This document shows, one piece after another, positions 972 through 53,387 of a stretch of 64,000 bases of DNA. Every line of letters begins with the position of its first letter. Positions within the stretch are counted from its first letter, which is position 1. The position numbers and the translations under genes are program-made. The stretch lies in assembly GCA_964447075.1 (NCBI GenBank), contig CAYUQY010000004.1:3760-67759 (forward strand). The letters are read 5' to 3'. Origin of the DNA: an uncultured Pseudomonadales bacterium (lineage in GTDB: Bacteria > Patescibacteriota > Microgenomatia > UBA1400 > PJMF01). Under the pieces are notes generated by a model. That model had not been told where the DNA came from, searched no databases, and saw nothing but the letters and a program-made list of their open reading frames with translations.

Positions 972-989
972 TCACTTAAGCCTTTCAAG

Positions 990-2735: not shown

Positions 2736-2753
2736 GGAATGTATTTAGTAAAA

Positions 2754-3875: not shown

Positions 3876-3956
3876 ACCAAGTATGTCATTTTTGTGATAA
3901 TATCAGTCAAACCTAATTTGGGCTAGTGTCAGACTCCCAATCAGTAGACCTTATTT

Positions 3957-4136: not shown

Positions 4137-4194
4137 CTATTTTTTTCAGTAGCTAAATTTCATTTAACCTATAACAGTTGAGATCAGTCATATT

Positions 4195-5574: not shown

Positions 5575-5582
5575 TATAGCAT

Positions 5583-9473: not shown

Positions 9474-10703
9474 TCAAGCTACCCAATATCCCTGTAGAAA
9501 GAGTATTGTATTAAATATAAGCCACAGAGTCGAGATAGATATGTAGAGAGCTCCGGATCTCGGGTGTTTGGCAAAGTACTTGCCTAAGCCTAGAAAAAAG
9601 GGTATCGAGATTAAGAAGTAGCGGGGTAAGCTAGAAAACGTACCTGTGAGAGTCGGGACAAAAAATGCCGATAGGGCAAAAAGAGTGTAGCTCCAACGAG
9701 TTGTTCTTGCCATGACGATCATCATGATCAAACCTACCCCACCCACTAAGAATTCAAGTAAAGAAGTAATAAATCTCAAGTCAAACGGAATAGTCGCTAA
9801 AATCTTAAGTGAACGCCAGAGTACTTGAGGGTAAATCACTAGTGAGTTTTGTCGCCCAGAGTTAAAAGCTGACTGAACATGAGCAAAATATAGCGGATCT
9901 CTAAACTCCAGCCACAAAAAGAGCATGTAGCCTATCAAGCCTAAACTTCCTAGAGAAAGAACTAGAATATTTTTGATGACGTTTGGCTTGAGAATTAAAC
10001 TCACTAAGTACTTAAGACCAATCCTTGGCTTAGAAACTAACTGTGAAGCATGCTCCTGCATCATCAGCTCCAGAATCATAGCTGGCAGAAGTAAAATTCC
10101 TACAATACGCGTCGCTGAGGCAAAGACTATAGTTAAGCTGACTAGATACCAATGACCCCTTTTAGCCAGCCAAAAACATGCTACCACCAAACATAAAAAG
10201 AGTGACTCTGTATAGAAAGCACCAAAGAATAATGCTGTTGGAAAAAGAAACAGAGTGAGTAGAGACCACTTGGCCACTTCTGCCCCACTCTCCTGTTTGA
10301 CAAAAAAGTACCACAAAATAAATAAAAGTAAGCCGAAAAAGTTAGTTAAAAACAAGCCAGTGCTTAGTAAGTTGAATCCTCCTAGGGCTAAATTGGGTAG
10401 ATAAAGCAACACAAAAGGAAAAACTGGAAAAAAAGCCTGCACCAGACCAGTGCCAATGTAACCTTTTTGGGCAATAGTCAGGTAGTGCACCCCATCAAAC
10501 CCAGCCCAAGAGTAGAGAGTTCGAGGCAAGCCGAACTTACTCAGTAAATCACCAGAGTAAGGAAAACTAGGACTGTAGGGTAAAAAGTGATCGGAGATCA
10601 AGCCTAGGGCTAGTAAGCTAGCTCTCCAGATAACAAAAAGAGAAACTAGGATTAAAAGCAAACGTGAGTTACTTGAAAAAAATTGCTTAAGTGTTTTAAA
10701 CAT
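9474..10703 (-). CDS. Polytopic membrane mannosyltransferase-like protein (PIG-V/GT76- or DUF2029-like GT-C)
   Basis: 409 aa and multi-TM. YSWAGFDGVHYLTIAQKGYIGTGLVQAFFPVFPF matches the WD..HY..IA..GY...AFFP pattern of PIG-V-type mannosyltransferases. This call is from memory of the family profile. Confidence 0.45.
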   Translation of the reverse strand: MFKTLKQFFSSNSRLLLILVSLFVIWRASLLALGLISDHFLPYSPSFPYSGDLLSKFGLPRTLYSWAGFDGVHYLTIAQKGYIGTGLVQAFFPVFPFVLLYLPNLALGGFNLLSTGLFLTNFFGLLLFILWYFFVKQESGAEVAKWSLLTLFLFPTALFFGAFYTESLFLCLVVACFWLAKRGHWYLVSLTIVFASATRIVGILLLPAMILELMMQEHASQLVSKPRIGLKYLVSLILKPNVIKNILVLSLGSLGLIGYMLFLWLEFRDPLYFAHVQSAFNSGRQNSLVIYPQVLWRSLKILATIPFDLRFITSLLEFLVGGVGLIMMIVMARTTRWSYTLFALSAFFVPTLTGTFSSLPRYFLISIPFFLGLGKYFAKHPRSGALYISISTLWLIFNTILFLQGYWVA

Positions 10704-22312: not shown

Positions 22313-22386
22313 CAAAGCTCTCACAGAGAGATAAAACTTGCACCAACTACCCCTACTGTTCATGAGTAACAAAGCTCTCACAGAGA
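22273..22386. repeat. Perfect 57-bp tandem direct duplication (2 copies: 22273-22329 and 22330-22386)
   Basis: Unit gataaaacttgcaccaactacccctactgttcatgagtaacaaagctctcacagaga, read twice back-to-back with no mismatch. It contains the stop of the + gene in copy 1 and the stop of the - gene in copy 2. Confidence 0.9.
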
Positions 22387-24191: not shown

Positions 24192-25863
24192 TGGCTGAGC
24201 GAATTACCTTGAGTGGCTCAACAAAATCAAGTTCTTCGTTGGTCATGAAGACAGCTCTTTGACCCAGTTTTTCAGCCTCACAACCTACAGAATCAAGTGA
24301 AACATCTTTGACAAAAATATTATTATAGTTGACCGTGTGCTGAAAGCCTGAAGCTTCTTTTTCTCCAAGGACCGCCGATGATTGATACTTCTGGGGATCA
24401 AGGTGGTTGTAAAAAGCATAAAACATAATTGGATCTGAGAAAAATGGCCTAATGACGACTCTCGTCTCAGGGCTAAAAGTACTCAGATACTCATACGACT
24501 CAGGTAAGTAAGATTGATACAGAGCATCATTTTTGAGGCTATGGATAAAAATAAAGTCAGAAACAAACCGTAAACCTGAAAAACTATAAATGACTCCCCA
24601 GGCTAACCAAAAGCAACTTAAGGCAAGGCGGCCATGTTTATGGCGAGAGTTAAGGATCATAGATGTCAAGCTAAGAGCGCCAGCAACTATCAAAATTAAA
24701 ATAAAAGGAAAAAGCGCAGACATTCGCACTTTTTGGGCTTCGCCAGCGAGTATGGTAGGAATAGGCGTAACGATCAAACCAAGCAGCACCAGCCATTTTG
24801 CTAAAGGATCTAGTCCTAGAGTTTTGGGAAAACAAATAAAAGCTACCAAGCCAATAATCAGCAGTGGATAAACAAGCGGGAAAAACTGGCCAGTTTGATC
24901 AACAGTCAAAAAAGGTGTGTCTTTTTCCCCTTGGGTGACAAGATATTGAGGTGAAAAAACATGAAGATAGCGCGATGCAAGAGTGCTGATAACTTCGAGT
25001 GGCTTGTTCCAGAGCAAGCTACAGACTGATAGTGGTAACTGCATGTTACAGAAAGTGCGCTGCTCATTGATTTTTTGGGCTAGGCCAGTATCTGAGGTAA
25101 TACCCACTTGTTTGTAGCGGCTGGTAAAAGAGCTAATAGCTGCCGGTTGAAAGAGAGGCAGAACGGTCAGAACAAAAGCCAGAATCCAGATAAAAATAGA
25201 TTTTCGCGGAAGGTTAGTTTTTTTATCTGAGTAAAACAGCCAAGTTGAGCAGAAAATTAAAATCAGAGCGGTGATAGGTCGATATGAGATGTAAGCATAC
25301 CAAGTCAGAGCCAGTGAGATACCAGAGCTTACTAAGAAGATCTTGTGGTACTTCGGAGACTGTAGGGCTGCTCCCAAAAGTGACAAGCCCAGGGTAAAGA
25401 GGAACAGAGCCAAGTTAGACTCCAATCCAAAGCGACTCAAGAAAATACTCCAAGGACTGAAAGCGGTCACAACTGCTGCCAGAGAGAAAGCCCACCATCT
25501 CTTGTCATTTTTCCAAAAGATTGCCAACATCAAAAAACCAGAAACAAGTGGCAGGACACTCCCTGCCAAAGCAGAGGGAACTCTGATGCTCAGGGTACTA
25601 AGACCCATGCTAGCCACAACTGGCATCAGACTGTAAGCATAGGCAGGCAGTTTATCGTCACCAAACCCTTTAAATATAACCGGCCACGAGCTGGAGTGTT
25701 CATCTCTGCCAGTAGCAAGAAGAGAGTAGGCGATGTATCCAAAGTGAGCCTCATCTACTAAGGCACCTTTGGGTGCAGAACCTAGCTGCCAAAAACGCAT
25801 GAGAGCACCTGAAATCAGAGCCAAAACAAGCAAAATAACTGGGAGTAGATAAGACTTTTTCAT
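24124..25863 (-). CDS. ArnT/PMT-like membrane glycosyltransferase resembling the GT-C fold, subfamily A
   Basis: 579 aa. The first loop is GALVDEAHFGYIAYSLLATGRDEHSSSWPV. It has a multi-TM core and a C-terminal soluble domain. Confidence 0.6.
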   Translation of the reverse strand: MKKSYLLPVILLVLALISGALMRFWQLGSAPKGALVDEAHFGYIAYSLLATGRDEHSSSWPVIFKGFGDDKLPAYAYSLMPVVASMGLSTLSIRVPSALAGSVLPLVSGFLMLAIFWKNDKRWWAFSLAAVVTAFSPWSIFLSRFGLESNLALFLFTLGLSLLGAALQSPKYHKIFLVSSGISLALTWYAYISYRPITALILIFCSTWLFYSDKKTNLPRKSIFIWILAFVLTVLPLFQPAAISSFTSRYKQVGITSDTGLAQKINEQRTFCNMQLPLSVCSLLWNKPLEVISTLASRYLHVFSPQYLVTQGEKDTPFLTVDQTGQFFPLVYPLLIIGLVAFICFPKTLGLDPLAKWLVLLGLIVTPIPTILAGEAQKVRMSALFPFILILIVAGALSLTSMILNSRHKHGRLALSCFWLAWGVIYSFSGLRFVSDFIFIHSLKNDALYQSYLPESYEYLSTFSPETRVVIRPFFSDPIMFYAFYNHLDPQKYQSSAVLGEKEASGFQHTVNYNNIFVKDVSLDSVGCEAEKLGQRAVFMTNEELDFVEPLKVIRSANGSLRYVYFYDATAYVKQKNAC

Positions 25864-27053: not shown

Positions 27054-28571
27054 TCAAGGTTTTTTGAGAGTATAAACTTCAAAACTTCGACCTTCTTGTG
27101 AGAACTCAAGCTTGGACATCTGTCTGAACCCTAGCTTCTCTTCTAGGTCGATAATCTTATGATCTTCTAGACAGTTGTCACCTTGTTTGCAGATGTAGAT
27201 GCGCCTGACAGGAGCTATGGAGCTCGAAGAGATGTCTAGGTTGGGATCTTGTGAAGTGGAAAACTGATCGAAGGGATTTTTGTTCACTTCTCTAGGCCAG
27301 ATATACTTGAGGCTATCTCTATAGAATTTGTAAGGCACGTCAACTACTGTGTAACTCTCGCCTCCAGCCTCAGACTCAATTTTATGGATTAAAGTTGAAA
27401 GAATTTGGTAGTCATGCTGGGGAGATGCAGTAAAAAGAGGCTGATGCGAAGTAGCAAGAACAGAGACTAGAGTAATCGTGACAACCTGAGCTACTGTCGC
27501 TTTCCAGTTGGTCCCAAGTCGATTCAGTAGAGATGAAAGCAAACAAACTGGTAAGTAAACACAAAATAATAAATAGAACTCATGCTTATCCCCTCTGTAG
27601 ATTCTCATACCAACCAAACTGCTTAAGAAAAAACCTAGAAGAATTAAATCGCTTGTATATCTAGTAAATCCAGACTTAGCAGCTTCCAAAACCCTCAGAG
27701 TCAAATGTAGTAAGCTAAAGCCTAAGAGTAACCTGCCAAGTGCGATGGATGGAGAGCTGACACCTATAAAAGTTTCGAAGAGGGAAGGTAGAGAGGTAGT
27801 AAAAAACGGCAACAACCTAGTCCTTTGATAAAATTGAGAGTGATCTTCTCTAAAAAAGTGCCAGATGTTTGTAAAATTATTTAGGGTTACGGTAAGGTCG
27901 AAGAGAAGTGGCAACAAGGTGCTTGCGCCAGCAAGAATAGCTACCAACCACCACTTTCTTGAAGTTGGCTGTCGTACAAAGCTCCAGATAACCACTGGGC
28001 CCAAGAAAAAAAACAGAATAAATGCTTGATAATGGAGCTGAAATGCCAGCATAGCGGCAACTATAGCTACCGTTGGCCAAACTTTACTTTTTGTCTTGAT
28101 AAGCTCACAAACAGCCAAAAACATTAAACTCGAAAAGAAAGGAATCATGTTGGGATTCCAGGCAAAAACACTAAAAGTGATCGCAAATGGTGAGACTGCA
28201 TAGAGAATACCCATCGCTATCCCAGAGCGGATTGACCAGTGACGAAACCCAATTAAAAAAAGAATTACTGGTGTAAAAGACTCAACTAAAACGATCATAA
28301 GTGAGGCGGAAGTAGGCCAGCCATTACTCAACCAAAATGGAATAGCCATCAGATAGTAGTAAAACGGCATGACATAAAAGTCGCCTACGCTAGCTTTAGG
28401 ACCTAAGACAAAAGGCGTTCCTGTCTGGATATGGTCCCAAACATAGAGAGCATCACGACCGTGATCGTCCCCGAACTGGTTGATGTGGTTCAACTGAAGT
28501 AACCGCAGACCCAGACTAAGAAGAAAAAGCAGTGTAATTAAAACTGGAACTTTATATTTGCGAAAAAACAT
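27054..28571 (-). CDS. Uncharacterised polytopic membrane protein, subfamily C (D-x-G-R-D-A / YYYLMA-PF motifs); putative GT-C-like
   Basis: 505 aa. QFGDDHGRDALYVWDHIQTGTPFVLGPKASVGDFYVMPFYYYLMAIPF closely parallels ORF 58659. Confidence 0.45.
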   Translation of the reverse strand: MFFRKYKVPVLITLLFLLSLGLRLLQLNHINQFGDDHGRDALYVWDHIQTGTPFVLGPKASVGDFYVMPFYYYLMAIPFWLSNGWPTSASLMIVLVESFTPVILFLIGFRHWSIRSGIAMGILYAVSPFAITFSVFAWNPNMIPFFSSLMFLAVCELIKTKSKVWPTVAIVAAMLAFQLHYQAFILFFFLGPVVIWSFVRQPTSRKWWLVAILAGASTLLPLLFDLTVTLNNFTNIWHFFREDHSQFYQRTRLLPFFTTSLPSLFETFIGVSSPSIALGRLLLGFSLLHLTLRVLEAAKSGFTRYTSDLILLGFFLSSLVGMRIYRGDKHEFYLLFCVYLPVCLLSSLLNRLGTNWKATVAQVVTITLVSVLATSHQPLFTASPQHDYQILSTLIHKIESEAGGESYTVVDVPYKFYRDSLKYIWPREVNKNPFDQFSTSQDPNLDISSSSIAPVRRIYICKQGDNCLEDHKIIDLEEKLGFRQMSKLEFSQEGRSFEVYTLKKP

Positions 28572-28579
28572 AACTAGAT

Positions 28580-30490
28580 TTACTTAACAAGAAGTATTTT
28601 CCAAATTTCTTCATTTTGTGGACCTTTCACACTCTCCAAAACTCTAACAGATTCAAACTTATTACTTACTTTTTCAAACATGGCTGGTGAAACAGCTACT
28701 ACACCTTTGGTAATCTCATCAATTGAGTTAAAAAAGACCATCCGTTTTGGAAAAGTCATACTTAGAAGCTCACCCTGATCATGATAATTTATTTTGTCAT
28801 TTTTCTGCACGACTATGGGATCAATTTTACTATAAAACCAGTAGTACATAGCCGGCCTTCCCTGTGATCTAGCCACGAACTGTGTTTCGCTGGAGTAGTC
28901 TTGATCAATAGCTTCAAGTTTGGAGAAGAGCTCTTGATAACCATACTGCCACCAGGCTACTGCCGCTTGTTTGGTATAGATAGTTGTGTAGTAACTCCAG
29001 AAGAGTCCGAACTGGGTTAAAACTGAAAGTACCAGGAGGCCAATCGTCACAATCTTCATCCCGAAACTTGGCATGAGTAGTTTTTTTAAGTTAAACGTAG
29101 TAAATAAAACATTTCTTGAGACTGAAGCCTGCAGTTGCGATGCGCTTTTGAGTACTACATTAACTAGACTACTTGCCCCTACTGTCGACACCACCAACCA
29201 GACTGGTAAAGTAATCAGAATTCTCAAAGCATGGGGGGAGCCAAAAGAGATAGCAGAAGGCAAGATGCCTATAAATAGCCAGAAGGACAGTAGTAAGTAC
29301 TTCCTAGAAAAGTTTTTGATCACTACTACCAAGCCAAAAAAAAGAAAAACTAAGTCTAGAGGATAGAACAAGCCGAAGTAGCCAGTAGAGTGTCGCAAGT
29401 TACTATCTCCACTCAAAAACAAAAAATCCAGTCTAAAGTGGGAGAAAAAATTGGCAGTAATCTCTTTAGCAAACAAGACGTAGCGATGAAAGATAAGTCT
29501 TGAAACTAAAGTATGACCACTCTGCTCAATAAGTCGATTGCTTTTTTCAATGATGGAAATGTCAGTAAAGATACTCGTTTGGGCAAACCGCTGTTGCAGG
29601 ACAGGACTTCTTGAGGCCAACAAGATTGGCGTCACAAGAGATAAAAAGAGAGCAGTTAGTCCTACAAATAAGTAGCGTTTTTGCTGAAGATTCTGTATCA
29701 AGCTTTTTTTTAAGCTAAAGCTAGGAGAAAGTTTAAGAGAAAAAAGGTACTCAAGCATGAGATAAACCCAAAGTATTGGCGCCACAACTCTGGCTGCGTG
29801 ATAGGCATACATGGACAGTCCAAATAAAACTGTACCTGCCGCCAACTGAACATAAGAGGAAAAAGCAAAACTTTCATTCTTGCTAAGAGCAAGAGTTTTT
29901 TTGCTAGACTTAATCTCAGTTGCTGATGATCTATTTGAGTTAACAACCACAACTGTTTCTTGGCCAAACTCAACTGCAGCTCTCATCAAAATTACGGCCC
30001 AAAGAATGAGACAACTACTCAAGTTTACCTCCCATCCACCTCGAGAAAACATCACTGCCCAAGGATTGAGTGATGCAAGGAACATACCTAGCAACTGAAG
30101 CCTGTTACTCTTGGTGAGCTGTTTGATCAAAACGCCTACTCCAATCACTATCATTACCCCAGCAACTACGCTCGGGAGTCTGACTGCTTCCACAGTTAAG
30201 CCAAAGAGAGCTATAAAAGGAACTACAGCATAAAAATAAAGGCTAGGTTTCCAGTCACCAAAAGACTCAAAAGCAACTACTGGAAAAAAATTACCATGAT
30301 GATCTTTGCCAGTTTTTAAAATGGAGTAGGCATCATAACCCAGTGCTACTTCTTCCCAATATGGGGAAGGAGGCGTGCTTGTAAGGAGTGTTAGCCGTAC
30401 TCCTAAAGCAAGAAAAACTAGCAAGCTAAACAAAAGTCCGAACCAATGTGCTGAGAGAAATCGTCTAGTGTTTTCAATCATATTTTTCAT
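28580..30490 (-). CDS. ArnT/PMT-like membrane glycosyltransferase resembling the GT-C fold, subfamily A
   Basis: 636 aa. The first loop is SPYWEEVALGYDAYSILKTGKDHHGNFFPV. Confidence 0.6.
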   Translation of the reverse strand: MKNMIENTRRFLSAHWFGLLFSLLVFLALGVRLTLLTSTPPSPYWEEVALGYDAYSILKTGKDHHGNFFPVVAFESFGDWKPSLYFYAVVPFIALFGLTVEAVRLPSVVAGVMIVIGVGVLIKQLTKSNRLQLLGMFLASLNPWAVMFSRGGWEVNLSSCLILWAVILMRAAVEFGQETVVVVNSNRSSATEIKSSKKTLALSKNESFAFSSYVQLAAGTVLFGLSMYAYHAARVVAPILWVYLMLEYLFSLKLSPSFSLKKSLIQNLQQKRYLFVGLTALFLSLVTPILLASRSPVLQQRFAQTSIFTDISIIEKSNRLIEQSGHTLVSRLIFHRYVLFAKEITANFFSHFRLDFLFLSGDSNLRHSTGYFGLFYPLDLVFLFFGLVVVIKNFSRKYLLLSFWLFIGILPSAISFGSPHALRILITLPVWLVVSTVGASSLVNVVLKSASQLQASVSRNVLFTTFNLKKLLMPSFGMKIVTIGLLVLSVLTQFGLFWSYYTTIYTKQAAVAWWQYGYQELFSKLEAIDQDYSSETQFVARSQGRPAMYYWFYSKIDPIVVQKNDKINYHDQGELLSMTFPKRMVFFNSIDEITKGVVAVSPAMFEKVSNKFESVRVLESVKGPQNEEIWKILLVK

Positions 30491-32169
30491 GGTGTTTTAA
30501 CAATTACAAATCTGATTTTACCGTCGCTGCCATAGATCAACTTGTCTGCTAGTTTTGGCTCAATTTCATCTGGAGTAGCCAATATCAAAGTTTTTTTTGA
30601 GGATAAATCACCTATGTTGATGTGGTCTGGAAATTGATACTTTATCAAAGCTCCACCGCGGTACCAAATAGGGTCTGTGTGTCTCACAAATAGGGTGTAG
30701 ATGTATGGCTGGCCATACACTGAAGTAATCAGTACTTTGTCTACTTCTTCTTCATGAGCCACTGCATACTCCATGGCTTCTAGATATCCATCCTGATAAT
30801 CAGCCGCACTCGCAGTAGCAAAGGCTGTAAAGTAGTGATGGGAGTAGCTCAAAACAAAAAAGGAGTGCAGCAGCACTCCAGTTCCGACCAGGACTCTAGC
30901 TATAAGGATTGAGTCAACCTTATTTTTACTAGAAAAGAAAACTCGCCCAGAGCTCACTAGCTTACTCATACAAATGTAAAAACCTAGGACACTCAAGCCT
31001 ATCCAACCTGGAAGAGCTAGAAGAGCTCGATTGCTGTGAGGTACATCTCTACCTATAATGGCAGGTAGAAAACCTATCACCACCCAAGCAAGAAAGAAGA
31101 TTAAAAGCTTCATGTACGGCTCTTTTCTTACTCTTGAACTAAAGGCGGCTCGCAAGATTGTGACTAAACTAGCTACTCCCAAGACAAACTCTGTAGGGAA
31201 TAACACTCCCCACATGCCATCTCCATGTCTTAGATTAGTTGTAACTCCTCCCACCAAGAAATCAGGATTCAAATGAGCTACTGTTCGCTCCAGGAGCATG
31301 ATTGAAGTAGTCACTGGATCGAGGTTAAGTCCGAAAACACTGCTCTGTAAAAATCTCTCCGAGCCGCTCCCAAAAAATGAGTCTTTGATCATTGGTAGTA
31401 GCAGTATGGTAGATATCACCAAAACTTGAAAAAGTATTATCTTGCGACTTTTCCAAAGCGGCCAAAAGCAAAGCACGAAACTAGTCATAACCAGGGGGAC
31501 AACAATTTTGGCTGAGTGGTAGCTGTACATCGAGCACACAAGTAGAACAGCTGCGCCAGCTACTTGAAGTAGCTGGTACTTAATTCCTAAGGCCTTAAAG
31601 AAAGTTCTCTGCAAGAGTAAGTCAGACATCAGCCAAGTTCCTAAAATAAGCAGTGTTAAGCTCAGTCCGCTCTCAAATGCAGTTCGTGAAAAATGAACAT
31701 GCCAAGGTGAAAAAGAGATCATGGCCAAGCCTAAAGTAGATAACCAGGTCACATATTTTGGCTCTAGTTTCAGATAAGGCTCAGAAAGCAAAGATTTTAA
31801 AACTGCGCCTATAGCTACTACAGCAGCTACTCCACTTAGAGCAAAAGGTAGTCTGACTGCAAAAGAGTTGAGACCAAACAAAAAAGTAAAGAAGCTATTA
31901 AGGTAAATAGCAAATGGAGCTTTGAAGTCTCCAAATGAGCGGAAAGAAAAAGGAAGTCTAGCTAACCACTCATCTCTGCGTGTCTGCCAAATTCCATAGC
32001 CATTGTATCCAATCGCCACCTCATCCCATGCCATGCCGTGAGGAACTTCTCCCAACTTAAAAAATCTAAAAATTGTGGCAGCTAGTAGCAACAAAGTAAG
32101 AAGTAATACTACCGGCTTTGAAAACCAGAACTGAATTTTTTTGATGATTTGGGCTGTATTACCTGACAT
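30487..32169 (-). CDS. ArnT/PMT-like membrane glycosyltransferase resembling the GT-C fold, subfamily A
   Basis: 560 aa. The first loop is MAWDEVAIGYNGYGIWQTRRDEW. A 4-bp ATGA overlap with the downstream paralogue is seen. Confidence 0.6.
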   Translation of the reverse strand: MSGNTAQIIKKIQFWFSKPVVLLLTLLLLAATIFRFFKLGEVPHGMAWDEVAIGYNGYGIWQTRRDEWLARLPFSFRSFGDFKAPFAIYLNSFFTFLFGLNSFAVRLPFALSGVAAVVAIGAVLKSLLSEPYLKLEPKYVTWLSTLGLAMISFSPWHVHFSRTAFESGLSLTLLILGTWLMSDLLLQRTFFKALGIKYQLLQVAGAAVLLVCSMYSYHSAKIVVPLVMTSFVLCFWPLWKSRKIILFQVLVISTILLLPMIKDSFFGSGSERFLQSSVFGLNLDPVTTSIMLLERTVAHLNPDFLVGGVTTNLRHGDGMWGVLFPTEFVLGVASLVTILRAAFSSRVRKEPYMKLLIFFLAWVVIGFLPAIIGRDVPHSNRALLALPGWIGLSVLGFYICMSKLVSSGRVFFSSKNKVDSILIARVLVGTGVLLHSFFVLSYSHHYFTAFATASAADYQDGYLEAMEYAVAHEEEVDKVLITSVYGQPYIYTLFVRHTDPIWYRGGALIKYQFPDHINIGDLSSKKTLILATPDEIEPKLADKLIYGSDGKIRFVIVKTP

Positions 32170-44850: not shown

Positions 44851-47034
44851 ATGTTCAAAGTCAAGTTTAGAAAAAAGTATTTTAGTAGCATTTTAATCTT
44901 ACTTTTTTTTTGCATAATTTTTTTCCTCTCCTGGTGGACAGATCCCACACCTCAACTTCAAGGGACACTCCTCATCTATGACAGGCACGGTAAGCTTATT
45001 TATCAACAAGCTGGAGCCGTGGTCAGACGAAAGCAAAATGTCTCTTTAGACCAAGTACCAAAGATGCTCCAGGAGGCTGTAGTTCTCACTGAGGATGAAA
45101 GATTCTGGCAACACCTTGGCTTTGATCCGCTGGCCATACTCAGAGCTAGCTACGACAACAGTGCTAGTGGTGAAGTCAGGTCAGGAGCCAGCACCATCAC
45201 CCAACAACTGATCCGCATCACTGTCATCTCTCCCTACTCTCGCGCTCCCAACACTCTGACGCGTAAACTGCAAGAAGTTTTGATGGCAACAAGGTTAACC
45301 TTTGCCAAAACCAAGAATCAAGTGCTGGAAACTTACCTAAATGAAGTTCATCTTGGGCACGGTACGTATGGAGTAGAAGCTGCTTCTCGATACTACTTTG
45401 ATCGAACTGTTTCTGGACTCTCGATATCTCAGTCTGCCCTGCTAGCTGGCCTTATAGCCAATCCTTCTGCCTTTGATCCTTTTGATTTTCCCAAACAAGC
45501 CACTTCACGACGCAATAAAGTTCTTCAAAAGATGCTAGATGCTGGAGCAATAGATGCAGAACAACTGAGTATTTCTCAGATAGAGCCACTACCCACAGTA
45601 GCTCATGCCCAAAACATAGTCTCTCCTCACTTTGTCCAAATGGTGATCAGCGAGCTTGAAAAACTGAAACTCTGGCCAAGTAGTGAAGGCTTAGTTGTTC
45701 AGACAACTCTCGATTCTGACTGGCAAAAAGTAGTTGAGTCGACAGCGACACTTCAGATAGAAAAAATTAAAGTCGATCATCTTGCTTCCAATGCTGGAGT
45801 GGTAGTACTTGAAAATAAATCTGGGAAGATTTTAGCTCTCTTGGGTAGTGTAGGTTTTGAGGATGTTCAGCTGCAAGGTCAAAACAACATGGTTTTGGCT
45901 CAAAGACAGCCTGGATCAGCGTTTAAACCCCTCACTTACGCAGCTGCTTTTCAAAACGGAGTCATAACCCCTGATACGCTTATTGATGATCGAGCCAAAG
46001 CTTATCTGACTAAATCAGGTGAAGGCTTTATTCCCAACAACTATGATGGTCGCTATCATGGCTTGGTAAGCGCCCGCACGGCGTTAGCATCCTCATACAA
46101 CGCTCCTGCTGTGGAAGTCTTAAGCCGGGTCTCAGTCGGCAAGACTTTAGAGTTTGCCAAAAAACTTGGCATCTCCACTTTGCGCTCAGTTGACAACTAC
46201 GACTTGGCTTTAACCCTAGGTGGTGGAGAGGTAAATCTGTTAGAGCTCACTAACGCTTATGCAACTTTTGCTAGACGGGGTCAAAGTAAACGGACATTTT
46301 TCATCAACTCAGTCACTAACTCTGGGGGCGCACAACTCTATAGCCACGTCGATGACGTGACTGATAGAGTCATGGATGAAAAAACAGCCGATCAAATCAA
46401 TGAAATCCTCAGCGACACCACAGCTAGAATGCCAGGATTTGGACAGAGATCTCCTCTGGAAACTGCCGTTCAGGCTGCTGTCAAAACCGGCACTACTACA
46501 GACTGGCACGACAACTGGACGATAGGCTACACGCCCACCCACACAGTAGGAGTCTGGGTAGGTAACTCTGACAACTCCCCCATGCGTCGGATCACAGGTG
46601 TAACAGGAGCTGCTCCAATTTGGCATGAGATTATAGAGTTACTATCTGCAAACGCACCAAACACTAAGTTTGTGCGTCCTGGACAAGAAACAAGTTTTCA
46701 GCAAAATATCACAGTTGAAGATGATCAGGATGATAGTCTTTTACAAATTATTAGTCCTAAACACTTAAGTACTTTTGAAGTTTTGCCTTCAAGACTGGAG
46801 ACACTTAGTCTTGAAGTCACTCCTTATAAACTAGTAGTTTCGGTAGATTGGTATCTGGATCATCAACTCCTTGAGCTGTCCGAGTGTCAAGTAAGCTCAA
46901 AAACCAGCTGCCAATGGAGAGCTACTAGAATCGGTGAACATACTCTCTTTGCTGTGGCACATCTAGATAACGGCTCAAAAATTAAGCTTGATGAGCTTAA
47001 GTTTTCAGTTCAGGAATACAAGAAGGAGTGGTAA
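44851..47034 (+). CDS. Class A penicillin-binding protein (GT51 transglycosylase plus transpeptidase; PBP1C-like context)
   Basis: An N-terminal TM anchor. GT51 motifs EDERFWQHLGFD and TYLNEVHLGHGTYGVEAASRYYF. Transpeptidase motifs SAFKP (SxxK), SYN and KTGTT. Confidence 0.85.
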   Translation: MFKVKFRKKYFSSILILLFFCIIFFLSWWTDPTPQLQGTLLIYDRHGKLIYQQAGAVVRRKQNVSLDQVPKMLQEAVVLTEDERFWQHLGFDPLAILRASYDNSASGEVRSGASTITQQLIRITVISPYSRAPNTLTRKLQEVLMATRLTFAKTKNQVLETYLNEVHLGHGTYGVEAASRYYFDRTVSGLSISQSALLAGLIANPSAFDPFDFPKQATSRRNKVLQKMLDAGAIDAEQLSISQIEPLPTVAHAQNIVSPHFVQMVISELEKLKLWPSSEGLVVQTTLDSDWQKVVESTATLQIEKIKVDHLASNAGVVVLENKSGKILALLGSVGFEDVQLQGQNNMVLAQRQPGSAFKPLTYAAAFQNGVITPDTLIDDRAKAYLTKSGEGFIPNNYDGRYHGLVSARTALASSYNAPAVEVLSRVSVGKTLEFAKKLGISTLRSVDNYDLALTLGGGEVNLLELTNAYATFARRGQSKRTFFINSVTNSGGAQLYSHVDDVTDRVMDEKTADQINEILSDTTARMPGFGQRSPLETAVQAAVKTGTTTDWHDNWTIGYTPTHTVGVWVGNSDNSPMRRITGVTGAAPIWHEIIELLSANAPNTKFVRPGQETSFQQNITVEDDQDDSLLQIISPKHLSTFEVLPSRLETLSLEVTPYKLVVSVDWYLDHQLLELSECQVSSKTSCQWRATRIGEHTLFAVAHLDNGSKIKLDELKFSVQEYKKEW

Positions 47035-47063
47035 AATTACCTTTGAGGTCGAGAGACTTAATA

Positions 47064-50000
47064 ATGAAAACCAAGTCACGTCTGCCCCCACAACCACTCT
47101 GGACAAAAGCTTTTTCTATGTTGAGGAAGTTTCAGAAAAAGTTACGACTGCTTACAGCAAAAAAACTACCACAACTGTCAAAGATATTTTCCTCGAGGCT
47201 AAAACTAATAGTCTTTGACTGGAAAAGATTTTTAGCCTCAGATCGCGTGAGTCTAGTTCAAGAGCTAGCACTTAACTCATTTAGGCAGCTAAAAACTTTT
47301 GCTATTTTCCTCAAAAAATATTTTCTCACTAGAGTAAGCCAGTTTGTCACTAACTTTAGAACGGCTTCTCTAAGAACAAAAGTCCGACTCTTAATTCTAC
47401 CAGTATTTTTGTGCCTCCTGGCTCTCTTTACCTGGCAGTCTAGCTCTCTTTTCACACCCCCAAAAGTTGTAGTCACATTTCCCGACAGTCAGTCTCGAGA
47501 TGTTTCCGTCGCCACCAAGGTTACTATCCAGTTTGATCGACCTATGCTGAGTCAGCACTTTGGTACTCCTCTCAAGTTTGGAAAAACTACTGCATCCGAG
47601 CTAACTCCAGTGCAGTTTTCTAGTGATGAAAAACCAGATTCAGTTTCCTGGCAAGGCAGCAACACTCTGAGCTTCACTCCTGCTTCCCCGCTTGAGAGAA
47701 ATACTGAGTACATCCTGAAGGTTGATCGTGGTTTGTTCTCAAGTTACTTTGTACCGCTGTGGCAGGCACAGACTGTCAAGTTTACGACAGAAGGCGATCC
47801 CAAAATTTTACTTGCCTCACCTCAAGGAGAAATTCTGGAGAAAAAACCAATCATCACGATTATGTTTGACCGCCCTATGGTCCCAGTCACTCTGGAGGGC
47901 AAAGAAGCTGATGACAGTAGTGACATGCTGAAGTCACCTCTGATCTTTATCCCCCTAGTTCCTGGCAGCGGCAGGTGGCTAGGTAGCTCTGCCTATGAGT
48001 GGACTCCAGATAAAAACCTAGCTCCAGCCACTACCTTTCAGTATGGGGTGGCCCCAGGTCTCAAAGCACAAGATGGCTCACAAATGCTCCAATCTCACAG
48101 CTTTAGTTTTGAAACAGAGAGCCCACACGTAGCTCTTCCAGTCTGTACTGGATCTCAGATGGAGTGTGAGTCATTTGAGTCCCAGAATGCAAACACTGTC
48201 ACTGTACCAGCTAGTGGTGAAAAGTATGCCAATATTGCTACTCCGATAGTAGTCAACCTTAACTTGCCGGTAACTCTTGAGTCAGCGCAAAGTAGCGTAA
48301 AACTCTTTGCCGAGAGAGGAGCTACCACTCTTCGAGATGTGCCAGCCACCATTCAAGTTCATAAAAAACAGATAATCCTGACCCCAAATCAACCTCTTGA
48401 GCGAGAACTCAGCTATAGGATTCAGATTTCCCCTGGCTTAAAAACACTCGGAGGGCCAAATCAATCGAAAGATAGTTACTCCTTCTACTTCAAAACCGCT
48501 CCTCTGCCCAAAGTCCTAAGCTCAGATCCCAGTGATGGTACCAAGAACTCTGACGAAACATCTCAACTAAAAGTGAAGTTCAACGCCCCGATGAAGCAGT
48601 CAAGCTTCAATGGACGACTCCACATTGATCCACTCCCTAAGGGCGATCTTGATCTCTACTTCTCCAACTACTCCGATAACAATACTTTGAGCATCAACAG
48701 CAGCTTCGAGAGATCAACCAGCTACAAAGTCACGCTAGACCCTGAAGTTGTTGATCAGCACGGCACTCCTCTTGGTAAATCATTTCAATTTTCTTTTGAG
48801 ACTGCCCCATATGATTCAACTGTAGTGATCGAGCCATCTGGCACCTACTTTGCCACTTTTAGTCAGAGTCTCGGTCCAAAATTTCTAGTCAGATCTAGGA
48901 ACACCAGTTCAGTATCTGTAGATGTATTTAAGATTGATAGGTCATCATTTTTGGAGTTGTATCGAGCTAGACAGAACTATCAAGAAAGTGAAGAGTTTCG
49001 ATCCTGGCAGTACTTTAGCACCCAGAAACTATCCAAACTTAATTCTTGGCAGATACCTATCGAGTCTCCGCTTAATGTCTCCAAAAAAATGGTTCTAGAA
49101 CTAAAAGATGATAAGGGTCAAAAACTACCAGCTGGCATGTATCTACTGGATCTCTCAGTTCCCAAAGGCAAGCGTCGTGATCGGACAGTGGTCATCATCT
49201 CTGACTCAGCTACAACCTTCAAGATCTCACCTCAAGATATGCTCATCTGGGCAGTTAATCAGTCAAACGGTCAGCCGATATCCAAGCAAAACATAGAGAT
49301 TACAGACAAAGTTGGTGAGTCACAGGGCTTAGGTCAGACCAACTCAGATGGAGTTTGGCAGCTGCACGACTCAATGCCGTACTCAAGACTACTTGAAAAA
49401 AACAAAGGCCAGCTAGTTTTGTTTGCCTTTCTCAAAGAAGGCGACAACGAAACAGTCGTTGCCTCTGACTGGTCAAGTGGCCTTGATGGCAGCGACTTTG
49501 GATTAAACAGCTCCTACTACCCCACAAAGACAAATGATAAACAAAATGAAGTTTATTTACTGATAGATCGACCGATCTATCGGCCTGGTCAAAAAGTCTA
49601 CTACAAAGGCGTAGTGCGTAGGCGTCAAGACAACAACTACACCCTTCCCACCCCTAACTCGCCACTTCAACTGACTGTCCATGATAGCCAGAACAAGGAA
49701 ATATACGCTACTACTGTCACGACATCTTCAGCTGGGAGTTTTGCAGGCGAGTTTAGCTTGGGACAGTCTGGTAAAGTCGGGGAGCACTCTCTAGTGGTCA
49801 AGATGGGAGAGACGCAAGCCTCTCAAGATTTCCAAGTCGAGATGTTTAGAACTCCAGAATTTGCAGTCAAAATACTTACTCCACAACAACTACTTATAGA
49901 TGAGCTTATCAAGCCCACTATCTCAGCCTCTTACTACTTTGGAGCTCCTCTTCCTAGAGCAAAGGTCAGCTGGAGCCTGACAGGGCAGGATGCTCCTTAC

Positions 50001-53000
50001 ACCTGGTCAAAAGACCGCAACTTCGAGTTTGGCGACGCTGACTCTGACTGGTACACTCCATGGTGGAGTCGGGAGAACACAAGCTACTTTGGTCAAGAGC
50101 TGGGCAAAGGTAAGGGTCTAACTGATAAATCTGGTGAGCTTAAACTCTCCTTGCCTATCTTGGAAAAAAAGAAAACCAATCGCCGTCTCAGACTTGAAGC
50201 TACAGTTGAAGACATCTCTCACCAGACAAGTATTGCCAACTCTCAAGAGTTTCTAGTTTACAACTCATCTCTAGATGTTGGACTTAAGCCCCTCACGTAC
50301 ACTTCAATAGCTGGAGCTCCAGCCGGAGCCGAAGTTGTGACCATAAACTCTGCTACTGGAGAAGAAAAACCAGCTCTTCCCATAAACATTCAAATCCTAC
50401 GCCGCAGCTGGAGCTCAATTCGTGAGAAAAATCCCAATGATGGCCAGCTCTACTGGATCAGCAAACCAATCGATAGTTTTATCGAATCTCAGCAACTGAT
50501 GAGTGATCAACACGGCAGAACAAAAGTAGTGTTTACCCCTCAGGAGGCTGGAACTTACAAAGTTCAGGCTGAAGTGAAAGATGATCAAGGCAGAACTGCT
50601 GTTTCTTCTACCTTTATCTGGGTAACTGGTGACAATGGTCACTTTAACCAAGCCAATAACGATCGAGTCCCACTTATTCCGGACAAGCAAGAGTATAAAG
50701 TAGGTGAAAAAGCTAAAATAGGAGTCGCAGCCAACGTACAATCTGGTATCGGCTTAGTCACCACAGAGAGAAACGGCGTTTATTCTTACCAAGTGCTGAC
50801 CAAGCCAGATCAGCTCAAGTCATTTTCTATCGATATCAATCAGGAGCTTGTACCCAACATCTTTGTCTCGGCTCTCTTTGTCCATCCCAGCACAGACTTT
50901 AGAGCTCCCCCTGACTTCAAGATGGGTATCACCGAGATTAGAGTTAGTGATCCTACCAAACATCTTAATGTAGAGTTTTTAAGTGAAAAGAAAGAGTATT
51001 TACCTGGTGAAGTCCTGAAGTCTAAAGTAAAAGTTACTGATCAGAACGGCGCACCGGTTCAAGCAGAGGTAGCCGTAGCGGTAGTGGACCAAGCAGTTTG
51101 GAGCTTAGCGAGAGTAGAGCTGCCAGATATTTTTGAGCTGTTCTACAGGCCGCAACAGTATGCTGTCAGCACAAGCCATAGCCTGACTCTCTCCATGGAT
51201 AGAATCAATGCCAACACCCTAGTTGGAGCTAAGGGTGGTTCCGGTGGTGGAGGCTGTGAGGGCGGAGACTGTGGAGCGACCACAATGAGAGACAACTTTG
51301 CAGACACTGCTTACTGGAATGCAAGCCTTGTCACCAACTCTCAAGGCATAGCTGAGTTTGAAGTTAAGCTTCCTGACAACTTAACCCAGTGGCGCCTGAG
51401 TGGTGTTGCAGCTACAGACTCAACAGCTGTAGGACAAGGAAGTAGCTCAGTAGTTGTCACTAAGCCTATCTTGATCACTCCCTACCTACCCAGATTCGTA
51501 AGCCTAGGCGATGAAGCCACACTTTCTGCCAGTGTTCACAATCTGACTTCTAGTGATCAAAACTTGAGTATTACTCTAGAACTAAATGGAGGCGAAGTAG
51601 TTGGGAACTCCTCTACATCACTTTTGCTTCCTGCACATACACAGAAAAAAATCGTCTGGCCTAGTAAAATTACAACCTTACAGACAAATCTTGAAGCTAA
51701 AATCACCGCCTCCAATCAACTTCAAGTTCTGGACTCTGTAAAAGTTGTGCTGCCGATGCAGCTCAACAATCAGCTCCAGCAAACTACCACCTCAGGCACA
51801 CTCTCTGGCAGGACTATCGAGCAAATTAAGCTACCTACTGGAGCAGTATCTGAGTTGAGTAAACTAAAACTAACCCTCTCAAGCTCTAGGGTTGGAGCAG
51901 CCATCTCCGGAGTTCAAAACTACATAGCTGAGTATCCTTTTTACTGTACTGAGCAAACAGTGGCGAAGCTCGTAATCATGCTGGGATTTCTGGAGTTGAA
52001 CAACCAGGGTGAAACTTATCAGCAGGGAGTTAGCATCTCCAACTCTCCTCAAGCTGTCGTGACAGACGCTATCGAGAGACTGGTGGCCACTCAAAATCCA
52101 GACGGCGGCTGGGGCTGGTGGGGCAGTAGTATGAGTAGTGACCCAGTCTTAAGCAGTATGGCTACCTCTGCCCTCTGGGAAGCCAAACAGTCGAGTCAAG
52201 TAGTACCTGATGTTACTCTTGATAAAGCCGCTACTTATCTGAGTTCCCTGCTCTCCATCTACTCAATTTCTAGTGATGAACAAGCCATTGTAGTCGAGGC
52301 TTTAACTAAGCTCAAAAAAGTTGATACTGCCACACTCAATAGGATTTTTGAGCACAGGCGTGAAGTTACTTTAACAAGTAGAGCATATCTCTTACTAGCT
52401 ATTCAGAGATCAAGTGGGGTCGATCAGATCGAGAAAACTCTACTTCAAGAGCTACTCTCTTTAGCTAAACTATCCAACACTTCTGTCCACTGGGAAGAGA
52501 ACTCAAAGAGCTCATGGAGGCTATTTTCTAACTCAGCTGGTCTAACTGCCCTCATGATAGAGGCATCTCTAAATGAAAGTCCTGACCATCCATACATAGC
52601 AAGAGCTATTTCCTGGCTAGAAAGTGCCAAGCACGATGGCCACTGGAGCTCAACTCACGATACTAGGTTGGTAGCTCATGCAGTTAGCCGAGTCGCAAAG
52701 CTAGAAAAAGCAGGTTTTTCACAACCATCGTGGCAAGCCAAGTTTCTAAACCAGAATGAGAGCGGACAGTTCGAACACAAAGACATCTTCAAAAATATTG
52801 ATCTCAACTTTTCTCTCAAAGATCTGAAAAGTGAGCAATCTCAAGAGCTATCTTTAGAAAAGAGCGGATGGTCCAATCTTTACTACAACTTAACTGCAGA
52901 TTTTGTCTTCCCTTTTGCAGCTTCAAAGCCCACCTCCAATGGCTTTACCCTCATTAGAGAACTTCAAACTAAAAGCGGGAAAAAATTAAGCAACACAGTG

Positions 53001-53387
53001 ACTACAGATGAGGAGATTTGGGTCAAGTTGACGCTTGTTTCGCCACAGGAGCGTCATCATGTAGTCATTGAGGACAAGCTACCTGCTGGCTTTGAGCCAG
53101 TCAACGAGAGCTTGGCCACTACTACTCTAGATGTATCACCACCTAAGCTAGACTCAGCCCTAGAAACGCCCGACAATCTAACTGAGCTGTTCGCAGACCA
53201 TCAAGAGATGCGCAGTGACAGAACTTTACTTTTTGTTGAAAATCTCACACCGGGGGTGTACTACTTCTCCTACAGAGTTCGACCAAGTATCAAGGGCAAG
53301 TTTCAGTATCCTCCAGCCGTAGTCTCAGAGATGTACTTTCCAGATGTCAAGGCTGCATCTGATGGGGGCTGGATCGAGATAAAGTAA
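47064..53387 (+). CDS. Bacterial alpha-2-macroglobulin family protein (thioester-containing), membrane-anchored
   Basis: About 2100 aa. The CTEQ thioester motif (YPFYCTEQTVAKL) is at nt 51944-51955. N-terminal tandem Ig-like repeats follow the pattern ...FDRPM... A Gly/Cys-rich segment GAKGGSGGGGCEGGDCGATT lies about 230 aa upstream of the thioester. A basic N-terminal tail precedes one TM (VRLLILPVFLCLLALFTW). The ORF-track start is a GTG at 47028 that overlaps the PBP stop. The ATG at 47064 with a GAGAGA SD 8 nt upstream is preferred. Confidence 0.85.
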   Translation: MKTKSRLPPQPLWTKAFSMLRKFQKKLRLLTAKKLPQLSKIFSSRLKLIVFDWKRFLASDRVSLVQELALNSFRQLKTFAIFLKKYFLTRVSQFVTNFRTASLRTKVRLLILPVFLCLLALFTWQSSSLFTPPKVVVTFPDSQSRDVSVATKVTIQFDRPMLSQHFGTPLKFGKTTASELTPVQFSSDEKPDSVSWQGSNTLSFTPASPLERNTEYILKVDRGLFSSYFVPLWQAQTVKFTTEGDPKILLASPQGEILEKKPIITIMFDRPMVPVTLEGKEADDSSDMLKSPLIFIPLVPGSGRWLGSSAYEWTPDKNLAPATTFQYGVAPGLKAQDGSQMLQSHSFSFETESPHVALPVCTGSQMECESFESQNANTVTVPASGEKYANIATPIVVNLNLPVTLESAQSSVKLFAERGATTLRDVPATIQVHKKQIILTPNQPLERELSYRIQISPGLKTLGGPNQSKDSYSFYFKTAPLPKVLSSDPSDGTKNSDETSQLKVKFNAPMKQSSFNGRLHIDPLPKGDLDLYFSNYSDNNTLSINSSFERSTSYKVTLDPEVVDQHGTPLGKSFQFSFETAPYDSTVVIEPSGTYFATFSQSLGPKFLVRSRNTSSVSVDVFKIDRSSFLELYRARQNYQESEEFRSWQYFSTQKLSKLNSWQIPIESPLNVSKKMVLELKDDKGQKLPAGMYLLDLSVPKGKRRDRTVVIISDSATTFKISPQDMLIWAVNQSNGQPISKQNIEITDKVGESQGLGQTNSDGVWQLHDSMPYSRLLEKNKGQLVLFAFLKEGDNETVVASDWSSGLDGSDFGLNSSYYPTKTNDKQNEVYLLIDRPIYRPGQKVYYKGVVRRRQDNNYTLPTPNSPLQLTVHDSQNKEIYATTVTTSSAGSFAGEFSLGQSGKVGEHSLVVKMGETQASQDFQVEMFRTPEFAVKILTPQQLLIDELIKPTISASYYFGAPLPRAKVSWSLTGQDAPYTWSKDRNFEFGDADSDWYTPWWSRENTSYFGQELGKGKGLTDKSGELKLSLPILEKKKTNRRLRLEATVEDISHQTSIANSQEFLVYNSSLDVGLKPLTYTSIAGAPAGAEVVTINSATGEEKPALPINIQILRRSWSSIREKNPNDGQLYWISKPIDSFIESQQLMSDQHGRTKVVFTPQEAGTYKVQAEVKDDQGRTAVSSTFIWVTGDNGHFNQANNDRVPLIPDKQEYKVGEKAKIGVAANVQSGIGLVTTERNGVYSYQVLTKPDQLKSFSIDINQELVPNIFVSALFVHPSTDFRAPPDFKMGITEIRVSDPTKHLNVEFLSEKKEYLPGEVLKSKVKVTDQNGAPVQAEVAVAVVDQAVWSLARVELPDIFELFYRPQQYAVSTSHSLTLSMDRINANTLVGAKGGSGGGGCEGGDCGATTMRDNFADTAYWNASLVTNSQGIAEFEVKLPDNLTQWRLSGVAATDSTAVGQGSSSVVVTKPILITPYLPRFVSLGDEATLSASVHNLTSSDQNLSITLELNGGEVVGNSSTSLLLPAHTQKKIVWPSKITTLQTNLEAKITASNQLQVLDSVKVVLPMQLNNQLQQTTTSGTLSGRTIEQIKLPTGAVSELSKLKLTLSSSRVGAAISGVQNYIAEYPFYCTEQTVAKLVIMLGFLELNNQGETYQQGVSISNSPQAVVTDAIERLVATQNPDGGWGWWGSSMSSDPVLSSMATSALWEAKQSSQVVPDVTLDKAATYLSSLLSIYSISSDEQAIVVEALTKLKKVDTATLNRIFEHRREVTLTSRAYLLLAIQRSSGVDQIEKTLLQELLSLAKLSNTSVHWEENSKSSWRLFSNSAGLTALMIEASLNESPDHPYIARAISWLESAKHDGHWSSTHDTRLVAHAVSRVAKLEKAGFSQPSWQAKFLNQNESGQFEHKDIFKNIDLNFSLKDLKSEQSQELSLEKSGWSNLYYNLTADFVFPFAASKPTSNGFTLIRELQTKSGKKLSNTVTTDEEIWVKLTLVSPQERHHVVIEDKLPAGFEPVNESLATTTLDVSPPKLDSALETPDNLTELFADHQEMRSDRTLLFVENLTPGVYYFSYRVRPSIKGKFQYPPAVVSEMYFPDVKAASDGGWIEIK

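Follow-up and report, generated by a model that had tools for sequence, protein, structure and literature searches.

A PBP1C-type penicillin-binding protein gene and a membrane-anchored thioester alpha-2-macroglobulin gene side by side in a Microgenomatia bacterium

The stretch of DNA considered here, 64,000 nucleotides of contig CAYUQY010000004.1 (assembly GCA_964447075.1) from an uncultured bacterium of the GTDB lineage Patescibacteriota, Microgenomatia, and referred to below as the window, carries on its forward strand a gene for a class A penicillin-binding protein (PBP), closely followed by a gene for a giant alpha-2-macroglobulin (A2M) with a thioester motif. On the evidence of domains, alignments and predicted folds, the locus belongs to the type I A2M/PBP1C system known from E. 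coli as yfhM-pbpC, in a version of the Candidate Phyla Radiation (CPR), and no new category is needed to accommodate it. It differs from the characterised proteins in membrane anchor, in a stalk of Big_5 domains, in gene order and in envelope type, and these differences are shared by its clade. Arguing by analogy with the E. coli A2M (ECAM) and PbpC, we put at about 0.7 the probability that the two proteins work in the same way, on the outer face of the cytoplasmic membrane. Both open reading frames (ORFs) lie where the initial annotation located them, and their lengths and E-values are far beyond the reach of chance. The features of the two genes, all on the + strand, are as follows (MG, macroglobulin domain; BRD, bait-region domain; TED, thioester domain; pLDDT, the per-residue confidence of AlphaFold).

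44851-47034, +: class A PBP gene, assigned to the PBP1C type (ORF of 727 aa; Pfam Transgly and Transpeptidase; TIGR02073)
44881-44937, +: putative N-terminal membrane anchor of the PBP, about residues 11-29 (FSSILILLFFCIIFFLSWW), read off the translation
45019-45534, +: GT51 glycosyltransferase domain, residues 57-228 (Pfam PF00912 Transgly, E 1.5e-56)
45796-46635, +: transpeptidase domain, residues 316-595 (Pfam PF00905 Transpeptidase, E 7.6e-28)
46723-46956, +: C-terminal BiPBP_C-like beta domain, residues 625-702 (PF06832, a match below the gathering score)
47028-47066, +: gene junction, with the PBP stop codon TAA at 47032-34 and three in-frame candidate A2M starts (sequence reading)
47064-53387, +: thioester A2M gene, 2107 aa from ATG (ORF; Pfam; identical to P0001)
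47064-47378, +: basic N-terminal tail, about 105 aa, predicted to be cytoplasmic (residue composition)
47379-47438, +: single predicted transmembrane (TM) anchor, residues 118-137 (KVRLLILPVFLCLLALFTWQ; Kyte-Doolittle hydropathy)
47454-48803, +: four Big_5 Ig-like domains forming the putative stalk, residues 143-592 (piecewise Pfam; AlphaFold)
48885-50615, +: MG series bMG2-like, bMG3, MG2, bMG5 and bMG6, residues 620-1196 (Pfam; fold matches)
50673-51104, +: A2M_BRD bait-region domain, residues 1216-1359 (PF07703, E 5.3e-21)
51174-51284, +: disordered putative bait, residues 1383-1419, with Cys1410 (51255-57) and Cys1415 (51270-72) (pLDDT; alignment)
51306-51578, +: A2M (MG) domain after the bait, residues 1427-1517, with LPDNLTQW at 1448 (PF00207, E 3.2e-21)
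51921-52940, +: TED, residues 1632-1971, with the thioester codons at 51945-51956 (TED_complement; model)
52941-53345, +: C-terminal bMG10, residues 1972-2106, with RSDR at 2062 and SEMY (PF17973, E 1.5e-27)

The two proteins and the junction of their genes

In the PBP the motifs of both catalytic domains are intact: EDERFWQHLG (at residue 81), GASTITQQ (112) and RKLQE (138) in the GT51 domain keep the patterns EDxxFxxHxG, GxSTxTQQ and RKxxE, and SAFK (356), SYN (415) and KTG (545) in the transpeptidase domain keep SxxK, SxN and KTG. The NCBIfam equivalog PBP_1c (TIGR02073) is passed marginally, with 497.3 bits and a cut-off of 494.2, and the score for PBP_1a_fam, 491.1 bits, falls under the cut-off of that family, 508.75. 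The nearest named homologues come from Woesebacteria, the "Microgenomates group", Roizmanbacteria, Shapirobacteria and Gottesmanbacteria, and several of them are annotated as PBP 1C, the label 'penicillin-binding protein 1C' being carried by those of Roizmanbacteria and Shapirobacteria. These sequence features place the protein among the class A PBPs, as one of PBP1C type.

For the A2M, a Pfam scan of the whole protein recovers Big_5, bMG3, MG2, A2M_BRD, A2M and bMG10, and a piecewise scan adds four Big_5 units (53, 18, 33 and 37 bits, the second being weak), a weak bMG2, bMG5, bMG6 and TED_complement. The thioester motif CTEQ occupies residues 1640-1643, in the context YPFYCTEQ (1636-1643), and the TED region is folded in the AlphaFold model as an all-helical toroid. 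The conserved Met-Tyr (SEMY) is present in the MG10 domain, whose RDDR and ExMY motifs have been functionally described as shielding the thioester (PMC4498604). A model of residues 1192-2119 (928 aa; pLDDT 82.5, predicted TM-score, pTM, 0.71) finds its best PDB match in native ECAM, 5a42 (E 3.5e-51; TM-score for the query, TMq, 0.64), and matches also the Salmonella protein Sa-A2M, 4u48; protease-activated forms match it less well (TMq 0.41-0.47). The model of the N-terminal part (pLDDT 80.7) contains the TM helix, four beta-sandwich, Ig-like domains in the stalk region and the MG series, its best PDB matches being again ECAM 5a42 (E 4.4e-36) and Sa-A2M (8.6e-35) over about 740 alignment columns. 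Pfam, the alignment to the Salmonella and E. coli proteins and the two AlphaFold models thus agree in identifying a type I, that is thioester, A2M. The architecture of MG and thioester domains on which the initial annotation depended is there, the C-terminal bMG10 included, and it was right that Ig-like repeats lengthen the protein, four Big_5 domains being recognised by piecewise Pfam and AlphaFold in 2107-2119 aa.

Cysteine is scarce, with only six residues in the 2119 aa. Four of the six form two close pairs, one C-x4-C in the bait (Cys1410 and Cys1415) and one C-x6-C (Cys373 and Cys380; 48144-48167) in a disordered linker joining the second Big_5 domain to the third. Both pairs fall in loops of low pLDDT and, as modelled, would be compatible with small extracytoplasmic disulfide loops.

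The membrane anchor initially described for the A2M, a Lys/Arg-rich tail and one TM helix with no lipobox, is borne out by composition, hydropathy and the list of possible starts. Residues 1-118 contain 28 Lys and Arg as against 4 Asp and Glu, and the sole Kyte-Doolittle peak above 1.6 in the whole protein is that at residues 118-137. The basic tail matched no family in a Pfam scan and is modelled as two long helices of low confidence. No lipobox of the form [LVI][ASTVI][GAS]C was found in the N-terminus, where the only Cys (Cys129) lies in the middle of the TM helix in the context VFLC. The in-frame starts are 47028, 47043, 47064, 47118, 47121, 47247 and 47409, the last inside the TM helix; none of them offers a short signal peptide and none lies between residue 74 and the TM helix. 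A downstream start giving a cleavable signal peptide or a lipobox was considered and rejected on the absence both of a start in that interval and of a lipobox.

The same kind of anchoring recurs among the relatives. In those from Microgenomates the tails measure 58-150 aa, some with extra TM helices; a lipobox is absent from the same-clade relatives too, whose membrane part is either a single TM helix with a basic tail or a set of three to five TM segments, and anchoring by TM helices only is common to all CPR relatives examined. In the majority of homologues from Chloroflexota there is a short signal sequence, and it ends in a lipobox-like L(A/S)(A/G)C. The relatives keep a juxtamembrane R(V/W)R(M/L)xRxP and, after the TM helix, PP(K/R)IxVTFPG, and because these motifs are shared the N-terminal region of the window A2M is taken as genuinely coding. 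Two to four additional TM segments precede the final anchor helix in the A2Ms of loci L001, L083, L084, L086, L087 and L088, the same position in the window A2M having amphipathic basic helices only, so that the N-terminal membrane module is highly plastic in the Microgenomates A2M clade.

At the gene junction, relative to the PBP stop codon, GTG 47028 gives an overlap of 7 nt, TTG 47043 a gap of 8 nt and ATG 47064 a gap of 29 nt. The frame is open from 47028, so that the A2M is 2119 aa from the GTG and 2107 aa from the ATG, the latter being the public gene call (P0001, 2107 aa). An AAGGAG at 47023-28 directly abuts GTG 47028, with no spacer; a usable Shine-Dalgarno site is found in only 3-4 of the 33 genes of the window, and because such sites are so rare the A2M start is not selectable from the sequence. 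The stop/start overlap or abutment initially described therefore holds for GTG 47028 only, the other two starts leaving gaps. Of the claim that the two genes are translationally coupled, the tight co-directional adjacency stands; with a start ambiguous from -7 to +29 nt and Shine-Dalgarno sites rare, coupling is plausible from the sequence rather than established. In Microgenomates relatives the gap runs from 4-5 nt (L001, L002, L087) up to 133 nt, one locus having a small ORF in between, and what is conserved is the tight co-directional adjacency of the PBP and A2M genes, not their overlap. At L085, an ORF of 165 aa lies between the two genes. A scan of 41-55 kb for promoters and terminators returned counts no different from those of shuffled sequence and, because of this, does not inform on an operon. 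Upstream, rmlD ends 17 nt before the PBP gene, and downstream a convergent trmD lies 10 nt beyond the A2M gene.

Conservation, known systems and the surrounding window

The pairing proposed initially was followed in related genomes, and in all ten clade loci (L001, L002 and eight loci sampled through their PBP) a PBP gene is followed by an A2M gene, with unrelated flanks. The eight PBP homologues were chosen without reference to A2M, and all eight have an A2M of 1954-2352 aa immediately downstream on the same strand. The nearest relatives of the window A2M are found in Roizmanbacteria (38%) and in Woesebacteria (36%), the latter belonging to the Microgenomates group of Patescibacteria, followed by Chloroflexota (25-30%); Peribacteria and Gracilibacteria are also represented. 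A wider survey took 81 A2M-anchored loci, with 1.07 Mb of flank, and looked for a class A PBP within 10 kb. One was present in 26 of the 81, adjacent to the A2M gene in 24 of these 26, with placements that were upstream and co-directional (14), downstream and convergent (10) or downstream and co-directional (1); where at least 3 kb of flank was available on both sides, the count was 16 of 42 loci. Twenty-six PBPs in 1.07 Mb of flank is far above expectation from the handful of class A PBP genes per genome. The list of A2M homologues is dominated by Big_5 proteins of 1850-2190 aa, and the length, the Big_5 stalk and the Gly-rich core of the bait are, on this sequence comparison, family-wide traits and normal for the clade to which the window A2M belongs.

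Two classes of bacterial A2M have been defined, and in type I, the common class and the one with CxEQ, the gene is juxtaposed to that of PBP1C, an arrangement for which a role in defence and wall repair has been hypothesised (PMC3328433, PMC3735191). The homology of the window pair to yfhM-pbpC of E. coli, claimed at the outset, is upheld by Pfam, NCBIfam, alignment, fold and the named PBP homologues. ECAM and Sa-A2M share with the window A2M the MG series, the BRD, a disordered bait, CxEQ in the TED and the MG10 cap, and their neighbour is likewise a class A PBP of the PBP1C type; the predicted fold of the window A2M matches their native forms, and the sequences align over about 900 residues at about 20% identity. 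There are also differences. In E. coli K-12 yfhM precedes pbpC and the genes abut, whereas in the window the PBP comes first. At 2107 aa the window A2M exceeds ECAM (1653 aa) by some 450 N-terminal residues, which are accounted for by its tail, its TM helix and the stalk of four Big_5 domains. As a CPR bacterium the host presumably has no outer membrane, unlike E. coli and Salmonella. ECAM is anchored as a lipoprotein, by a signal peptide and lipobox (PMC3328433), and the window A2M by a TM helix that follows some 105 aa of basic tail, the lipobox being a property of the characterised enterobacterial members and not of the fold family.

Closer in architecture is the Big_5 A2M family of Chloroflexota, Acidobacteria, Myxococcota and others, which is known by database annotation only ('alpha-2-macroglobulin family protein', 'Ig-like domain-containing protein', 'YfaS') and which has the same architecture, the same length class, the KGGxGGGG core and, as in the window, a frequent linkage to a class A PBP. 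Its Chloroflexota members mostly have a lipobox-like signal and often a convergent PBP downstream, in contrast to the upstream, co-directional PBP of the window. Among CPR bacteria, membrane A2Ms of 1895-2368 aa have been reported, Vamp_6_203 and Vamp_19_245 of Vampirococcus lugosii with homologues in Gracilibacteria, Paceibacteria and WWE3, and have been read as protection against host proteases (PMC8080830, PMC9793634). By their descriptions these are giant and membrane-associated like the window A2M, and the reports make no mention of a PBP1C partner, the type of anchor or the bait. A Gracilibacteria locus in our own set, L038, has no PBP adjoining the A2M gene. The type II proteins, MagD and E. 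coli YfaS, belong to the same A2M/MG fold family; MagD of P. aeruginosa lacks CxEQ, is not adjacent to pbpC and is encoded in the six-gene magABCDEF operon (PMC3735191). A type II identity for the window A2M was rejected, given its CTEQ and its neighbours, which are rmlD, the PBP gene and trmD, with no mag-like genes nearby.

Nearly the whole 64-kb window is an island of cell-envelope glycan genes, encoding at least nine glycosyltransferases of family GT2 and two of GT4, at least six membrane proteins of the PMT_2/YfhO type (GT-C-like), a Wzx-like flippase, an ABC-2 exporter pair, an acyltransferase_3, two S-adenosylmethionine (SAM) methyltransferases, an LCP ligase and several sugar-nucleotide enzymes. 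The sole housekeeping gene is trmD, and scans of the 64 kb for tRNAs and Rfam families gave no matches. Eight ORFs on the - strand (409-636 aa; within 9474-12417, 16091-17881, 22353-25863 and 27054-32169) have no Pfam match at 1e-4 and contain 6-10 hydrophobic segments each. Presumably they encode polytopic proteins, as yet uncharacterised, of the glycan polymerase, ligase or GT-C-like kind. The ORF at 5583-6923 (446 aa) has neither a Pfam match nor a hydrophobic segment. The GC content of positions 1-6000 is 0.32-0.36 as against 0.40-0.46 elsewhere in the window, and this part of the island could have been acquired separately. For the pair itself, recent arrival on a horizontal island was rejected, its GC content of 0.44-0.46 giving no compositional sign of it beside the 0.41-0.45 of its surroundings.

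The bait region and the Hint domains of relatives

A Gly-rich segment with two Cys residues had been picked out initially as lying where a protease bait would be expected, and the position is the expected one by alignment, by disorder and by its variable length in homologues. The segment, GAKGGSGGGGCEGGDCGATT, spans residues 1400-1419, with Cys1410 230 aa before the thioester Cys. In a phmmer alignment residues 1396-1423 stand opposite residues 935-960 of Sa-A2M, and residues 1383-1418 (about 36 aa, pLDDT below 50) are the only long disordered stretch in the C-terminal model; the bait of ECAM, Arg923-Leu942, is disordered as well (PMC4498604). Across 39 homologues the bait is flanked by two conserved anchors and is anything from about 25 to about 100 residues long, and its poly-Gly core, KGG(S)GGGG, is conserved family-wide. 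The Gly-rich core is thus no peculiarity of the window A2M, and only the Cys-x4-Cys pair is unusual: it is absent from all other clade members examined, and in P0085, a distant homologue, a GGG run is followed by a lone Cys.

The bait of some relatives is interrupted by a further domain. In five of the eight sampled sister A2Ms a Hint domain of 129-130 aa is inserted exactly after the KGGSGG(G) core (L083 10321-17013, L085 10994-17377, L086 10490-17041, L088 9925-16983 and L089 10431-16769), and the insertion was followed also in the proteins P0241, P0242 and P0250-P0396. The junctions read ...GG|CF(T/A)...(W/F/Y)VHN|(K/Q/D)KG..., with a TxxH block inside; Pfam PT-HINT scores 43-74 bits on these domains, and the closest solved structure is 2LWY, a "bacterial intein-like domain" (BIL; E 5.5e-11). 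When a 204-aa fragment comprising BRD and Hint was used as the query of an exhaustive phmmer search, the best 150 matches contained at least 107 distinct A2M clusters (no more than 50% identity) with the order BRD, Hint, A2M domain. All 107 begin the Hint domain with CF after GG and end it with HN; at the +1 position 90 of them have D, Q or E, and just 7 have a nucleophile, Ser. Downstream of the Hint domain CxEQ is present in 59 of the 107 and absent from 48 (about 45%), and in many Hint-bearing A2Ms, for example at L085, the thioester Cys is lost and the remaining architecture kept. The four named clusters comprise three from Patescibacteria and one from Bipolaricaulota, most clusters being unnamed, and the annotations are "alpha-2-macroglobulin family protein" or "polymorphic toxin-type HINT domain-containing protein". 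A literature search on inteins or Hint domains together with macroglobulins found nothing relevant, which does not by itself prove novelty. A Hint or BIL domain within the bait, if functional, would be a new way to arm or process a thioester protein, and more surprising than the window locus itself.

The window A2M gave no match to a Hint family in whole or piecewise Pfam scans, and its bait measures about 36 aa. Could the Gly run and Cys nevertheless be the scar of a lost Hint domain, with Cys1410 as the retained Cys1 and E-G-G as the former C-extein (D/Q/E)KGG? The idea has some appeal: the window bait reads ...GGGG-C-E-GG-D-C..., which puts Cys1410 at the position of Cys1 in the GG|CF...VHN|(D/Q/E)KGG arrangement of the sampled sisters and the 107 clusters, in a protein in which Cys is rare (6 of 2119 residues), and the Hint-less P0085 also has GGG-C-GGGGGG, while the Hint-less P0003 and the Hint-bearing L085 have flanks that are nearly the same, implying that the domain was gained or lost recently. 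Yet the window segment is colinear with Hint-less sisters (GGGG-G-E-GG-PET), no further Hint remnant accompanies it, and a Gly-rich core also occurs in distant Hint-less A2Ms, Sa-A2M included. Cys1410 and Cys1415 are each encoded by TGT, which a single transversion separates from the GGT Gly codons of the run, so that point mutation suffices, and a simple Gly-to-Cys change would explain Cys1410 equally well. We regard the scar as rather doubtful. More speculative again, and in our judgement unlikely, is an extension in which the window bait, as an empty or decayed Hint site, is cut or acyl-transferred from within, PBP1C and A2M then making up a self-arming surface device, autoproteolytic or redox-gated through the Cys-x4-Cys, instead of a passive trap awaiting a foreign protease.

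Proposed function, alternatives and meaning for the family

If the window pair works like ECAM and PbpC, the two genes would form a co-transcribed envelope module, a peptidoglycan synthase of the PBP1C type followed by a type I A2M. Each protein would be held at the outer face of the cytoplasmic membrane by its N-terminal TM helix, the body of the A2M being borne on the stalk of four Ig-like Big_5 domains, and the two may be in contact with each other. A foreign protease would cleave the disordered Gly-rich bait (about residues 1383-1419); the A2M would then change conformation, and the putative thioester of Cys1640 and Gln1643, until that moment shielded by the Met-Tyr pocket of MG10, would capture the protease covalently. 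PBP1C would polymerise and cross-link glycan in wall repair or maintenance. The initial annotation spoke of a periplasmic defence-and-repair unit, and of this the defence and repair may be carried over with the homology of the pair, the word periplasmic being doubtful, since CPR bacteria, Microgenomates among them, are regarded as having no outer membrane.

Several observations weigh against this interpretation. BiPBP_C, the signature domain of PBP1C, is recorded in most of the close PBP homologues (45-48% identity) and remains below threshold in the window PBP, at 16.6-21 bits (21 bits, E 3e-4, for the tail alone) with a gathering score of 26.8. Pfam recognition of the TED is weak, the domain falling below threshold in the scan of the whole protein and reaching 29.1 bits, with a gathering score of 22, as an isolated segment, and the RDDR motif of MG10 reads RSDR here, with one substitution. 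In the wider survey no PBP lies within 10 kb in 55 of the 81 A2M loci, and in many Chloroflexota the PBP is convergent and not co-transcribed. CxEQ is lost in about half of the Hint-bearing relatives (48 of 107), so that the thioester mechanism does not extend to every member of the wider family, and for the clade of Big_5, TM-anchored A2Ms the mechanism is drawn by analogy from ECAM and Sa-A2M.

Two other functions can be set beside it. An A2M predicted to stand on a long Ig-like stalk, in a type of cell that presumably has no outer membrane, could act as a covalent adhesin or "harpoon", the thioester of an episymbiotic CPR bacterium tethering the cell to surface proteins of its host or prey and PBP1C remodelling the wall at the point of contact. 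Large membrane A2Ms do figure among the putative host-interaction surface proteins of Vampirococcus (PMC8080830) and of other Patescibacteria (PMC9793634), but the same reports favour protection against host proteases; moreover, the full apparatus of bait, BRD and MG10 shielding typical of protease-triggered A2Ms is conserved, and the Big_5 architecture occurs also in free-living Chloroflexota, Acidobacteria and Myxococcota, all of which makes a harpoon improbable. The strict order of PBP and A2M in the clade might instead suggest that the A2M serves mainly to position or activate PBP1C across the wall, protease trapping being secondary or lost. Its logic would be analogous to that of the Lpo proteins, which are activators of PBP1A/B. 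A direct contact of PBP1C with the C-terminus of ECAM was proposed by Neves et al. (PMC3328433), and the loss of CxEQ at L085 (YPYSGIEQ) and in the 48 Hint-bearing clusters shows that the family can persist without the thioester. The window A2M, however, keeps the thioester motif, the shielding residues and a disordered bait, and most Chloroflexota A2M loci have no PBP nearby, so that an A2M can function without a linked PBP; we consider a principally regulatory or scaffolding role very improbable. Defence and repair after the manner of ECAM and PbpC remains the reading that we prefer.

The link between A2M and PBP1C was defined in Gram-negative bacteria and rationalised there as periplasmic defence and wall repair following a breach of the outer membrane. 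Standard domain and family searches suffice to recognise the locus described here. The tight conservation of the pair in CPR bacteria of the Microgenomates group shows that the partnership is independent of a lipoprotein anchor and, if these cells have no outer membrane, independent of a periplasm too. A TM-anchored CPR pair thus constrains models of the role of the two proteins, and small genomes evidently find the module worth keeping.

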